From: a virus
Lineage: Duplodnaviria; Heunggongvirae; Uroviricota; Caudoviricetes
Strand: one strand, 5' to 3'
Virus record (IMG/VR): IMGVR_UViG_2690316099_000018
Length of the DNA stretch: 5,689 nt
Positions 1 to 5,184 of the stretch are shown here, piece after piece. A program made the position numbers and the translations under genes. Below the pieces are notes generated by a model. The model made no database searches and was not told the origin of the DNA. It was given only the letters and a program-made list of their open reading frames with translations. Positions within the stretch are counted from its first letter, which is position 1, and each line of letters starts with the position of its first letter.

Positions 1-16
1 GTGGGGAGTGTTTAAG

Positions 17-544
17 ATGATGCACCTGAAAAATATTAAGGCCGGGAATCCGAAAACACCGGAACAATACCAGCTAACTAAAAAAGCGGGCGTGGTATGG
101 CTCTTTTGCGAAGATGGCAAAAACTGGTATGAGGAACAAAAGAATTTTCAGCCAGACACCATAAAAATTGCTTACGATGAGAACAACATCATCGTTGCTG
201 TCAGTAAAGACGTTTCAACTATTAATCCTGAAGGGCTAAGCATAGTTGAAGTTCCTGATATTACGGCAAATCGTCACGCAGACAATAACGGAAAATGGAT
301 GTTTCTGGATGGTAAAGTAGTAAAGAGGGAATATACAGAACAGGAACTGCAACAACAGGCCGAATCACAAAAGGCCGCATTGCTTTCCGAAGCTGAATCA
401 GTCATCCAGCCGCTGGAACGCGCTGTCAGGCTGAATATGGCGACGGACGAGGAACGCACACGACTGGAAGCATGGGAACGCTACAGTGTTCTGGTCAGCC
501 GTGTGGATACGGCAAATCCTGAATGGCCACAAAAGCCTGAATAA
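17..544 (+). CDS. tfa: Tail fibre assembly protein (Tfa chaperone family, P2 gpG / Mu U / TfaR-like), lying in inverted orientation relative to stf
   Basis: Intact ORF (track 8-544). The C-terminal region ([43 protein letters not shown]) matches the conserved C-terminus of Tfa proteins as I recall it from lambda Tfa ([36 protein letters not shown]...EWP). Start preferred at ATG 17 (MMHLKNI...) because GGGGAG at 3-8 sits about 8-9 nt upstream; the GTG at 8 is the track start. Stop TAA 542-544. Confidence 0.85.
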
Positions 545-2255
545 AAATTAAGGCCCGATANNNNNNNNNNNNNNNNNNNNNNNNNNNNNNNNNNNNNNNN
601 NNNNNNNNNNNNNNNNNNNNNNNNNNNNNNNNNNNNNNNNNNNNNNNNNNNNNNNNNNNNNNNNNNNNNNNNNNNNNNNNNNNNNNNNNNNNNNNNNNNN
701 NNNNNNNNNNNNNNNNNNNNNNNNNNNNNNNNNNNNNNNNNNNNNNNNNNNNNNNNNNNNNNNNNNNNNNNNNNNNNNNNNNNNNNNNNNNNNNNNNNNN
801 NNNNNNNNNNNNNNNNNNNNNNNNNNNNNNNNNNNNNNNNNNNNNNNNNNNNNNNNNNNNNNNNNNNNNNNNNNNNNNNNNNNNNNNNNNNNNNNNNNNN
901 NNNNNNNNNNNNNNNNNNNNNNNNNNNNNNNNNNNNNNNNNNNNNNNNNNNNNNNNNNNNNNNNNNNNNNNNNNNNNNNNNNNNNNNNNNNNNNNNNNNN
1001 NNNNNNNNNNNNNNNNNNNNNNNNNNNNNNNNNNNNNNNNNNNNNNNNNNNNNNNNNNNNNNNNNNNNNNNNNNNNNNNNNNNNNNNNNNNNNNNNNNNN
1101 NNNNNNNNNNNNNNNNNNNNNNNNNNNNNNNNNNNNNNNNNNNNNNNNNNNNNNNNNNNNNNNNNNNNNNNNNNNNNNNNNNNNNNNNNNNNNNNNNNNN
1201 NNNNNNNNNNNNNNNNNNNNNNNNNNNNNNNNNNNNNNNNNNNNNNNNNNNNNNNNNNNNNNNNNNNNNNNNNNNNNNNNNNNNNNNNNNNNNNNNNNNN
1301 NNNNNNNNNNNNNNNNNNNNNNNNNNNNNNNNNNNNNNNNNNNNNNNNNNNNNNNNNNNNNNNNNNNNNNNNNNNNNNNNNNNNNNNNNNNNNNNNNNNN
1401 NNNNNNNNNNNNNNNNNNNNNNNNNNNNNNNNNNNNNNNNNNNNNNNNNNNNNNNNNNNNNNNNNNNNNNNNNNNNNNNNNNNNNNNNNNNNNNNNNNNN
1501 NNNNNNNNNNNNNNNNNNNNNNNNNNNNNNNNNNNNNNNNNNNNNNNNNNNNNNNNNNNNNNNNNNNNNNNNNNNNNNNNNNNNNNNNNNNNNNNNNNNN
1601 NNNNNNNNNNNNNNNNNNNNNNNNNNNNNNNNNNNNNNNNNNNNNNNNNNNNNNNNNNNNNNNNNNNNNNNNNNNNNNNNNNNNNNNNNNNNNNNNNNNN
1701 NNNNNNNNNNNNNNNNNNNNNNNNNNNNNNNNNNNNNNNNNNNNNNNNNNNNNNNNNNNNNNNNNNNNNNNNNNNNNNNNNNNNNNNNNNNNNNNNNNNN
1801 NNNNNNNNNNNNNNNNNNNNNNNNNNNNNNNNNNNNNNNNNNNNNNNNNNNNNNNNNNNNNNNNNNNNNNNNNNNNNNNNNNNNNNNNNNNNNNNNNNNN
1901 NNNNNNNNNNNNNNNNNNNNNNNNNNNNNNNNNNNNNNNNNNNNNNNNNNNNNNNNNNNNNNNNNNNNNNNNNNNNNNNNNNNNNNNNNNNNNNNNNNNN
2001 NNNNNNNNNNNNNNNNNNNNNNNNNNNNNNNNNNNNNNNNNNNNNNNNNNNNNNNNNNNNNNNNNNNNNNNNNNNNNNNNNNNNNNNNNNNNNNNNNNNN
2101 NNNNNNNNNNNNNNNNNNNNNNNNNNNNNNNNNNNNNNNNNNNNNNNNNNNNNNNNNNNNNNNNNNNNNNNNNNNNNNNNNNNNNNNNNNNNNNNNNNNN
2201 NNNNNNNNNNNNNNNNNNNNNNNNNNNNNNNNNNNNNNNNNNNNNNNNNNNNNNN

Positions 2256-4390
2256 AATGAAATGAAGAAAATCTTCTGAACGACGGAAAATTAGACCGAA
2301 GGTATCATTGAAAATTCGCAGCGCATTCACCGTGCCAATTTTCAGTTCTCCGGTCATTTTATCGCCGGAACGCTGAACGGCGTTACCAGCCTTGTTTACC
2401 GTTTCCTGTAAACCGAGGTATTCGATAACGGCGGCAACGGTCGATTTCGCAAGAATATCCCGCCCGACTTTTGTCAGGGTTGCCAGGCTGGCGACATCAT
2501 TCCCCGTAAAATACGGAAACTTGCCTGCCGCAGTAGTAAGTCCGGCCAGCGCCGTCAGGGTGGCATCTTTCGGTTGCTTACCCGCAAGCGCGTTAGTCAT
2601 GGTGGTCGCAAAATTCGGGTCGTTGCCCAGCGCCGCAGCCAGCTCGTTCAGCGTGTTCAGTGCATCAGGTGACGAATCTACAAGGGCGGCAATCGCAGCC
2701 ATAACGAAAGCCGTGCTTGCGATTTGGGTATTATTCGTTCCCTGTCGCGCAGTTGGTGTTGTTGGCGTTCCGGTCAGTGCAGGACTATTTAAGGGCGCTT
2801 TCTTGTTCGTTTCACCCATTACCGCCTTAACCGCTTTTGGCGTTGCCGCCAGTGACTCGGAAGTGCTGTTGGTCGCACTGCTGAGCTGTACTATCCCCTT
2901 TTTCGTCGTGCTCGCATCCTCAAGCGCCACGGCGGATGCAATATCCTCTGCCCGTTTTGCTGCTGTCTCGGCGCGCGTTGCCGCGGATTCAGCAGCAACT
3001 TTGCTCTGAGATGCAGCCGTCGCACTGCCTGCCGCCTCTGATGCTTTCGTTGTTGCTGTCGTGGCACTACCTTTCGCTGCTGACGCTTGTCTGGTCGCCT
3101 CATCTTTTGAAGCAGACGCAGATGATGCCGATGACGCCGCNNNNNNNNNNNNNNNNNNNNNNNNNNNNNNNNNNNNNNNNNNNNNNNNNNNNNNNNNNNN
3201 NNNNNNNNNNNNNNNNNNNNNNNNNNNNNNNNNNNNNNNNNNNNNNNNNNNNNNNNNNNNNNNNNNNNNNNNNNNNNNNNNNNNNNNNNNNNNNNNNNNN
3301 NNNNNNNNNNNNNNNNNNNNNNNNNNNNNNNNNNNNNNNNNNNNNNNNNNNNNNNNNNNNNNNNNNNNNNNNNNNNNNNNNNNNNNNNNNNNNNNNNNNN
3401 NNNNNNNNNNNNNNNNNNNNNNNNNNNNNNNNNNNNNNNNNNNNNNNNNNNNNNNNNNNNNNNNNNNNNNNNNNNNNNNNNNNNNNNNNNNNNNNNNNNN
3501 NNNNNNNNNNNNNNNNNNNNNNNNNNNNNNNNNNNNNNNNNNNNNNNNNNNNNNNNNNNNNNNNNNNNNNNNNNNNNNNNNNNNNNNNNNNGCCGAGGAA
3601 GCTGCACTACTGGCACTTGATGATGCATTCGTTTCTGAAGATTTCGCTGCCTCTTTTGAGGCCGCCGCACCCCGTGCCGAGGTNNNNNNNNNNNNNNNNN
3701 NNNNNNNNNNNNNNNNNNNNNNNNNNNNNNNNNNNNNNNNNNNNNNNNNNNNNNNNNNNNNNNNNNNNNNNNNGATGCTGCGGCATTCGTTTCTGACGTT
3801 TTCGCGGCACTGGCGCTGGTAGCTGCCGCGCTTTTTGATGACTCTGCAGCAGCACTTTTTGCTGCTTCACGGGCCTTTGTCGATGCCGTTCCTGCGCTGG
3901 AAGACGCTGACTGAGCCGACGTCGCGGCCTGTCCGGCTGACGTGCTGGCGGCACGTGCTGAGGCTGCAGCATCGGTTGCATGAGTTGCCGCCTCGCTGGC
4001 TGATTTTTTCGCGGCTGCCGTATTCTGTGCAACCGCGGAGGCGTTACGTGACACCTCTTCCACCATCTGCTCAAAGCGGCGCAGTGCCTCCGGTCGGACA
4101 TCATCCTCCGTCATGGCACCGAGAAAATCATTCAGCGTACCTGGTCTGGAACCTTCATAGACGGTAATGGTCCCGGCATGTGAAGGCGGAAAACCTTCAA
4201 CCAGCAGGGTGACGCTGTACTGACCATGCTCAACATCCATGCTGTAACGTCCGGCTTCATCCGGATTTTCAGAGGCCACCGTGTTCACCACCATCGTGCT
4301 GCTGGTTCGTCTGGCCTTCAGCACAATGGTGCAGTTCTGTACTGGTTTTCCTGTGCCATCTTTAAGCACGCCAGAAATTTTTACTGTCAT
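2256..4390 (-). CDS. stf: Side tail fibre protein Stf (lambda Stf-like); 3' end runs into the masked block 561-2255, and there is an apparent frame discontinuity across masked 3684-3773
   Basis: ATG at 4390-4388. The N-terminus MTVKISGVLKDGTGKPVQNCTI...GFPPSHAGTITVYE...GTLNDFL.AMTEDD matches lambda Stf from recall. An Ala/Ser-rich shaft follows (KSAAAESSKSAAATSASAAKTSETNAAAS). Hand translation of 3683-3592 gives TSARGAAASKEAAKSSETNASSSASSAASS, and 3140-2256 gives ...AGSATAASQSKVAAESAATRAETAAKRAEDIASAVALEDASTTKKGIVQLSSATNSTSESLAATPKAVK...NTLNELAAALGNDP...GRDILAKSTVAAVIEYLGLQETVNKAGNAVQRSGDKMTGEL..., collinear with lambda Stf up to EYLG. The track's 'M' at 2930 is an internal GTG (Val); the frame is open upstream to 3140. 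Confidence 0.9.
2403..2428. other. Candidate crossover site for a Din-family serine invertase (gix/pix/cix/hix-like 26-bp site) embedded in stf at the constant/variable junction
   Basis: Plus-strand sequence TTCCTGTAAACCGAGGTATTCGATAA. It fits the pattern I recall for Gin/Hin/Cin/Pin crossover sites (TTCnTGnAAACCnAGGTnTTnGATAA; gix recalled as TTCCTGTAAACCGAGGTTTTGGATAA, about 24/26 identical). It has imperfect dyad symmetry about a central GA. It encodes ...IEYLGLQE..., exactly where similarity to lambda Stf stops. Confidence 0.6.
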
Positions 4391-4404
4391 ACTTTTCCAC
4401 CAAT

Positions 4405-4437
4405 AAAAAAAGCCCGCAGCAGTGACGCCACGGGCTT
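4405..4437 (-). terminator. Rho-independent terminator between the truncated stf paralogue and full-length stf
   Basis: Minus-strand RNA 5'-AAGCCCGUGGC GUCACU GCUGCGGGCUU followed by a U-run (UUUUUAUUGG): an 11-bp stem including two G-U pairs, a 6-nt loop, and a T-tract (plus-strand A-run 4405-4411). The stf start codon follows about 15 nt downstream. Confidence 0.6.
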
Positions 4438-5174
4438 CAGGACAGTGTAACTTTACGTTTCCTCAAACGCAGNNNNNNNNNNNNNNNNNNNNNNNNNNNN
4501 NNNGTGGATGCAGAAGTGGCTGCTGATTTTTGTGACGCTGCAGCATTCGTTTCTGACGTTTTCGCCGCACCGGCACTGGTGGCCGCCGCGCTTTTTGAGG
4601 ACTCTGCAGCGGCAGCACTTTTTTCCGCTTCAGTGGCCTTTGTTGATGCCGTTCCTGCGCTGGAAGACGCTGACTGAGCCGACGTCGCGGCCTGTCCGGC
4701 TGACGTGCTGGCTGCACGCGCTGAGCCTGCAGCATCAGTCGCATGGGTTGCCGCCTCACGGGCAGATGTGCCGGCATCACTGGCTGACTTCTTCGCGGCT
4801 GCCGTGTTCTGTGCCACCGCGGACGCGTTACGCGCCACCTCTTCCACCATCAGTTCAAAACGGCGCAGAGCCTCCGGACGGGCATCATCCTCCGTCATGG
4901 CACCGAGAAAATCATTCAGCGTACCGGGTCGGGAATCTTCATACACGGTGATGGTCCCGGCATGTGACGGCGGGAATCCTTCCACCAACAGAATAACGCT
5001 GTACTGACCGTACTCAACGTCCATGCTGTAACGCCCGGCTTCATCCGGATTTTCTGAGGCCAGCGTGTTCACCACCACCGTGGTGCTGTTACGTTTTGCT
5101 TTCAGCTGGATTGTGCAGTTCTGTACCGGTTTTCCTGTGCCGTCTTTCAGTACACCTGAAATCTTTACTGCCAT
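4437..5174 (-). CDS. Truncated paralogue of the side tail fibre N-terminal domain (about 240 codons; possible pseudogene or remnant of a second stf module)
   Basis: ATG at 5174-5172 (the track's GTG at 5180 gives MNMAVKISG...). The protein MAVKISGVLKDGTGKPVQNCTIQLKAKRNSTTVVVNT...AAKTSETNAAASQKSAATSAS is about 90% identical by eye to the first ~205 residues of the stf at 4390, with a 7-residue insertion (DAGTSAR) and one extra Ala. After masked 4473-4503, all three frames hit a stop by 4437; the track frame ends ...LRLRKRKVTLS*. Confidence 0.7.
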   Translation of the reverse strand: MAVKISGVLKDGTGKPVQNCTIQLKAKRNSTTVVVNTLASENPDEAGRYSMDVEYGQYSVILLVEGFPPSHAGTITVYEDSRPGTLNDFLGAMTEDDARPEALRRFELMVEEVARNASAVAQNTAAAKKSASDAGTSAREAATHATDAAGSARAASTSAGQAATSAQSASSSAGTASTKATEAEKSAAAAESSKSAAATSAGAAKTSETNAAASQKSAATSASXXXXXXXXXXXLRLRKRKVTLS

Positions 5175-5184
5175 ATTCACCCCA

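Follow-up and report, generated by a model that had tools for sequence, protein, structure and literature searches.

An apparent frameshift in a lambdoid side-tail-fibre gene probably reflects N-runs of inexact length

The window analysed here (the whole stretch of 5,689 nt of viral DNA) comes from a lambdoid prophage in an E. coli/Shigella-like genome and covers its tail-fibre region, lom-stf-tfa. The sequence contains four runs of Ns (1695, 451, 90 and 31 nt), and the side-tail-fibre gene stf appears to change reading frame across the 90-nt run. The N-runs are probably not length-true masks of real sequence: either they mark unresolved gaps where short contigs were joined into a scaffold, or they are placeholders whose length is inexact. 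The stf frameshift is then probably an artefact; we infer that the Ns originated in scaffolding. The break in the reading frame would then be an artefact because the length of the N-run is not the true one. The real spacer under positions 3684-3773 is most likely the invariant 58 nt found in homologues. With this spacer stf would remain in frame and would encode an intact side tail fibre, and the discontinuity would come from the gap length.

Layout of the tail-fibre region and the phase offset

The main copy of stf starts with the ATG at 4390 and is visible as three pieces, split by the 90- and 451-nt N-runs (Table 1). The N-terminal prophage tail-fibre domain PF08400 is present as a full profile in both stf copies, with an E-value of 6.9e-73 in the second fragment. 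An Ala/Ser-rich shaft, collinear with that of lambda Stf, is followed by a Phage_fiber_2 repeat, as expected of a lambdoid Stf. The stretch 2256-3140 comprises the end of the Ala/Ser region, the Phage_fiber_2 repeat, the constant/variable junction and the first 147 nt of the variable part Sv1. The surroundings are also those of a lambdoid stf, with lom (PF06316) upstream and tfa (PF02413) downstream, but tfa is not oriented as the crossover site's state requires. Together with the end of Sv1, it occupies the strand opposite to stf (1-544).

Table 1. Features of the window (positions from the first letter of the 5,689-nt stretch)
Feature	Position	Strand	Remarks
Last Sv1 codons (VGSV*), 1-15, then tfa, 17-544	1..544	+	tfa: PF02413 Caudo_TAP, E = 7.9e-37
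1695-nt N-run	561..2255	.	Length matches neither inversion state of relatives
stf middle part, phase 2, AASSASSASASKDEATRQ...RRSEDFLHFI	2256..3140	-	Phage_fiber_2 PF03406, E = 3.2e-19
26-bp Gin/Pin-type crossover site TTCCTGTAAACCGAGGTATTCGATAA	2403..2428	+	Half-site combination = state i
451-nt N-run, stf Ala/Ser-rich shaft region	3141..3591	.	364 nt in relatives
Visible stf island, 92 nt, TSARGAAASKEAAKSSETNASSSASSAASS, phase 2	3592..3683	-	100 % identical to relatives
90-nt N-run in main stf	3684..3773	.	Exactly 90 nt; 58 nt in relatives, in every anchor-bearing locus
Main stf N-terminal part, residues 1-205 + 2 nt, phase 0	3774..4390	-	PF08400 phage_tail_N, E = 1.7e-70
Intergenic, 82 nt upstream of main stf	4391..4472	-	In relatives continues to lom gene
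31-nt N-run	4473..4503	.	Separates intergenic sequence from second stf fragment
Second stf N-terminal fragment, other allele, 223 codons	4504..5174	-	85 % identical to main copy
lom (Ail/Lom family), C-terminal 149 codons	5239..5689	-	PF06316 Ail_Lom, E = 3.3e-94; runs off window end

Beyond tfa, the visible sequence (545-560) ends in the loop of a hairpin, AAGGCCCG-ATAG-CGGGCCTT, which is found in the related locus L159 at 10529-10556. Lying between convergent tfa genes, this hairpin is probably a bidirectional terminator.

Read on the minus strand, 3774-4390 gives MTVKISG...KTSETNAAA(S) in phase 0 from the ATG, while 3592-3683 and 2256-3140 are in phase 2. The initial annotation had reported an offset of one nucleotide across the 90-N block and none across the 451-N block, and computation of the phases confirmed both, although the mismatch holds only if the 90 Ns are length-true. 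The collinearity with lambda Stf that it had proposed is also borne out, with KTSETNAAAS corresponding to residues 205-214 of lambda orf-401. When the frame of the ATG at 4390 is read through the Ns, an Arg/Gln/Pro-rich nonsense tail results, which runs to a stop at 2891. A gap of arbitrary length would put the two sides out of phase in two-thirds of cases, so the mismatch alone is no more than chance predicts. A frameshift, an assembly indel and an untrue N-run length had all been put forward to account for it. The last of these is favoured, all homologues having 58 nt at this point.

The hidden spacer in homologues and near-identical relatives

Both exact 20-nt anchors flanking the 90 Ns were present in 51 fetched loci. 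The spacer between them was 58 nt in every case (51/51), and its sequence was identical in 48. At the protein level, the motif pair KTSETNAA[AT]S...SAR.A.ASKEAAK encloses a 19-residue linker in 84/84 loci, lambda included; lambda stf had been suggested as a comparison at the outset, and its linker at the masked spot is in frame. On the minus strand, the 58 nt (1 mod 3, in frame) finish a Ser codon and then encode QKSAATSASTATTKASEAA (19 residues). The flanks also align to the edges of the N-run in three complete E. coli genomes, with 58 nt encoding QKSAATSASTATTKASEAA between them. Anchor scans of IMG/VR at spacings of 28-57, 59-80 and 75-105 nt gave no matches, and neither did a scan of JGI metagenome contigs at 75-105 nt. 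A single continuous stf ORF runs through the masked point in all relatives.

Seven close relatives, three from IMG/VR (L097, L098 and L107) and four from NCBI chromosomes (L155, L159, L161 and L162), match the window at 99.6-100 % identity wherever its main stf and tfa are visible. Over the N-terminal part of the main stf (3774-4390), identity is 99.7-99.86 % in L097, L098, L107, L155, L159 and L162. Four of the relatives (L097, L098, L155 and L162) show 0-3 substitutions per visible segment and zero indels. L159 has one gap in segment D, L161 has an insertion inside D, and only part of segment A is present in L107. In all seven (7/7) the 90-N block is replaced by 58 nt, in frame, and the 451-N block by 364 nt, so that a frameshift lesion common to the close relatives was not found. 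The relatives encode an intact Stf, of 918 aa in L155 and L162 and of 875 aa in L159, which is in the flipped state. Replacing the two N-runs within stf of the window by 58 and 364 nt gives 2016 nt of stop-free sequence, or 672 codons, which differs from L155 Stf at 2 residues.

Wider searches gave more distant matches. In a BLAST search of 5,426 complete E. coli genomes the best match to the stf segment was 98.4 % and a window-like layout was absent, and phages and plasmids gave nothing closer. An exact-pattern scan of the genome_contigs collection returned E. albertii matches only. Scans for exact patterns in the viral_contigs and metagenome_contigs collections did not yield the source record. 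When proteins were searched with the 205-aa N-terminus, most of the matches were partial or frameshifted fragments and none was exact. Exact look-ups of the proteins encoded by the window, both with X runs and without them, and of partial proteins that end where an N-run begins, gave no match.

In the loci L154-L163 the related prophage adjoins trpA-trpD. The genomes that carry these loci are absent from the complete E. coli collection, which suggests that the hosts are Shigella-like. Insertions of IS1 and of IS3-family elements have heavily degraded the prophage in several related chromosomes, where stf is deleted and tfa/tfa2 alone remain.

It is unlikely that the frameshift is real. In that case the 90 Ns would stand for 90 true bases, with a 32-nt insertion or duplication compared with the 58-nt spacer, and stf would be a pseudogene whose product has residues 1-206 and then an out-of-frame Arg/Gln/Pro-rich tail. 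The phases do differ with 90 nt, and the shifted frame is open to 2891, which would give a product of ~470-499 aa. Public chromosomes commonly carry disrupted stf ORFs (P0047, P0057, P0065, P0086 and P0109), the related prophages lie in IS-rich, decaying contexts, and lambda PaPa, in which side fibres are abolished, provides a precedent (PMC12617516). However, no homologue has a spacing other than 58 nt. A real frameshift would also need independent indels of +32 and +87 nt, both exactly beneath N-runs, in a gene whose only other differences from its closest relatives are substitutions, and it leaves the mixed inversion states (see below) and the 1695-N block unaccounted for. The earlier suggestion that stf carries a frameshift comparable to that of lambda PaPa found no positive evidence.

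Many stf calls on multi-megabase public chromosomes (e.g. P0047 and P0109) switch to an Arg/Gln/Pro-rich shifted frame. Frameshifts, whether genuine or the result of consensus error, are frequent in the Ala/Ser-coding region, and its composition keeps the shifted frames open over hundreds of codons.

Programmed frameshifting occurs in other tail genes, e.g. lambda G/GT. For stf, programmed translational frameshifting (or recoding) has nothing but the phase difference in its favour, and it was rejected on the basis of the one continuous ORF in all relatives. Moreover, the window has no sequence at this point to carry a slippery site, and the product of the shifted frame would be without the receptor-binding part. 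We regard this reading as extremely improbable.

Low probability is also given to the possibility that the 90 nt are real assembled sequence with a length error, made in assembly or gap-filling of repetitive Ala/Ser-coding DNA, the biological gene being intact. GCN/TCN-rich repeats occur in several prophage copies (median 2-3 places per E. coli genome), and the draft scaffolds here are visibly mis-built. Against this, typical consensus errors are 1-2-nt indels and not +32 nt, and nothing points directly to sequence, rather than a gap, beneath the Ns.

N-run lengths, stf paralogues and inversion states

Reading the N-runs as gaps of inexact length brings in the other N blocks. Compared with the relatives, the runs measure 90 against 58 nt, 451 against 364 nt, and 1695 nt against 726 nt (inversion state i) or ~1310 nt (state ii), so that the last fits neither state. 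Some points weigh against the gap reading. All four N-runs are longer than the relatives imply (+32, +87, ~+385 and possibly +18), which is a one-sided bias. In addition, deliberate masks, which are mentioned for the genome_contigs collection, might preserve length. Where the visible segments end did not align cleanly with k-mer repeats (k = 17-31) common to both stf alleles or within L097, and therefore the breaks are not shown to have a simple de Bruijn-graph origin.

The second stf fragment, upstream of the main copy, is probably a piece of the stf of a second prophage, placed there by scaffolding. All of the contigs with 68 nt of the end of this fragment (26/26) continue as normal stf, and all loci with the intergenic sequence (125/125) continue to lom. 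A gapped-pattern search of IMG/VR for the point where the second fragment meets the intergenic sequence gave no match, and adjacency of the two stf alleles was seen in no contiguous sequence searched.

There is precedent for such a layout in the same lineage. The IMG/VR scaffolds L107 (at 3411 and 6838) and L149 (at 677 and 1342-1345) join contigs of stf paralogues across 1-4 Ns, and L149 has a 664-nt paralogous piece inside stf where the true distance is 58 nt. This chaining in L107 and L149 indicates that draft assemblies of the lineage do yield such layouts, with N counts unrelated to real distances. The L107 and L149 records are thus not readable as contiguous sequence.

The upstream stf paralogue is called as an ORF of 247 aa (4437-5180) ending in LRLRKRKVTLS*. 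It crosses the 31-N block into intergenic DNA, and its stop and C-terminus depend on the length of that N-run. GTGGATG lies at 4504-4510, and an identical 7-mer is found 13 nt past the visible intergenic end (4472) in the relatives L155 and L005. A microhomology junction at GTGGATG would hide 13 nt, not 31, and the match may be due to chance.

The relatives carry two inverted 26-bp sites, TTCCTGTAAACCGAGGTATTCGATAA and TTCTCGTAAACCGAGGTTTTAGATAA, whose half-sites are swapped between L155/L162 (state i) and L159/L161 (state ii). In state i the order is Sc-site-Sv1-tfa, and in state ii Sc-site-Sv2-tfa2 converges on tfa-Sv1. In the relatives, inversion exchanges a 918-aa Stf (Sv1 + tfa) for one of 875 aa (Sv2 + tfa2). 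The invertible segment is ~2.9 kb, with sites at 9086-9111 and 12002-12027 in L155 and L159 and with half-sites exchanged at the core. Only one crossover site is visible in the window (2403-2428), and the evidence for both orientations comes from the relatives.

The window mixes the two states. On the minus strand it has the state-i site and the beginning of Sv1 (2256-2428); its plus strand carries tfa and the end of Sv1 (1-544), as in state ii. Neither inversion state by itself yields such a layout, and the window is inconsistent as a single molecule. Such a mixture is as expected if contigs from a population of mixed orientation were scaffolded, or if one contig was mis-oriented.

Site-specific inversion was considered for the opposite-strand tfa and rejected, as the window retains the state-i half-sites and the start of Sv1. 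A hybrid Sv1/Sv2 recombinant and an inverted tfa duplication were considered as fillings for the 1695 nt, and were also rejected, the offsets needed being 233 and 409 nt.

The whole layout could instead be genuine, with a truncated stf module fused upstream of a lom-less stf that has a 32-nt insertion after residue 206, and with the cassette rearranged, in a decaying, recombined locus. We think this quite improbable.

A functional serine invertase gene was not found adjacent to the segment. A 60-aa PF00239 remnant is present in L155, L158 and L160 (at 12082-12264) and in L161 (at 8849-9031), and there is none within the window. The presence of both states despite the remnant invertase suggests that another invertase acted in trans, or that the inversion predates the decay of the gene.

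Relation to known tail-fibre systems

Tail-fibre loci, in which repetitive Ala/Ser-coding DNA occurs together with several prophage paralogues and an invertible cassette, rank with the most frequently mis-scaffolded regions of draft enterobacterial genomes. Arithmetic on reading frames across N-runs has no meaning unless the runs are known to be length-true. If the frameshift were true, it would give another defective prophage with an inactivated side-tail-fibre gene, like that of lambda PaPa, and no new biology. Lambdoid side tail fibres, intact or inactivated, are well known, and no reading considered here gives new biology.

Among the near-identical relatives, L155 (CP032523.1), L162 (CP179997.1) and L159 (CP179990.1) have an intact Stf and belong to prophages adjoining the trp operon. 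They differ from the window in having one stf copy each and a tfa orientation that agrees with the state of the crossover site.

The stf of phage lambda (Ur-lambda; orf-401 + orf-314 in lambda PaPa, NC_001416) resembles that of the window in its PF08400 N-terminus and in the gene order lom-stf-tfa. Both proteins have KTSETNAAAS and then SAR.A.ASKEAAKSSETNA, with the 19-residue linker between them in lambda. The C-terminal variable part and tfa of the window differ from those of lambda, and sit in the invertible segment. The stf frameshift of lambda PaPa is the precedent for a broken gene of this kind (PMC12617516). As the initial annotation had stated, it lies elsewhere, near residue 395, whereas the apparent break in the window is at residue 206, where a frameshift is undemonstrated.

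The crossover sites place the variable part of the locus beside the Gin/Cin/Pin/Min segments (Mu G, P1 C, e14 P and p15B). These have in common with the present locus two inverted 26-bp sites, TTC..GTAAACCGAGGT.TT.GATAA, at the constant/variable junction of a fibre gene, as well as alternative Sv-tfa cassettes, both orientations among related genomes, and exchanged half-sites. The 26-bp sites resemble gix. Unlike in the Gin/Cin/Pin/Min systems, the host gene here is a lambdoid stf and the adjoining resolvase is only a remnant. The invertible cassette itself is a known kind of system.
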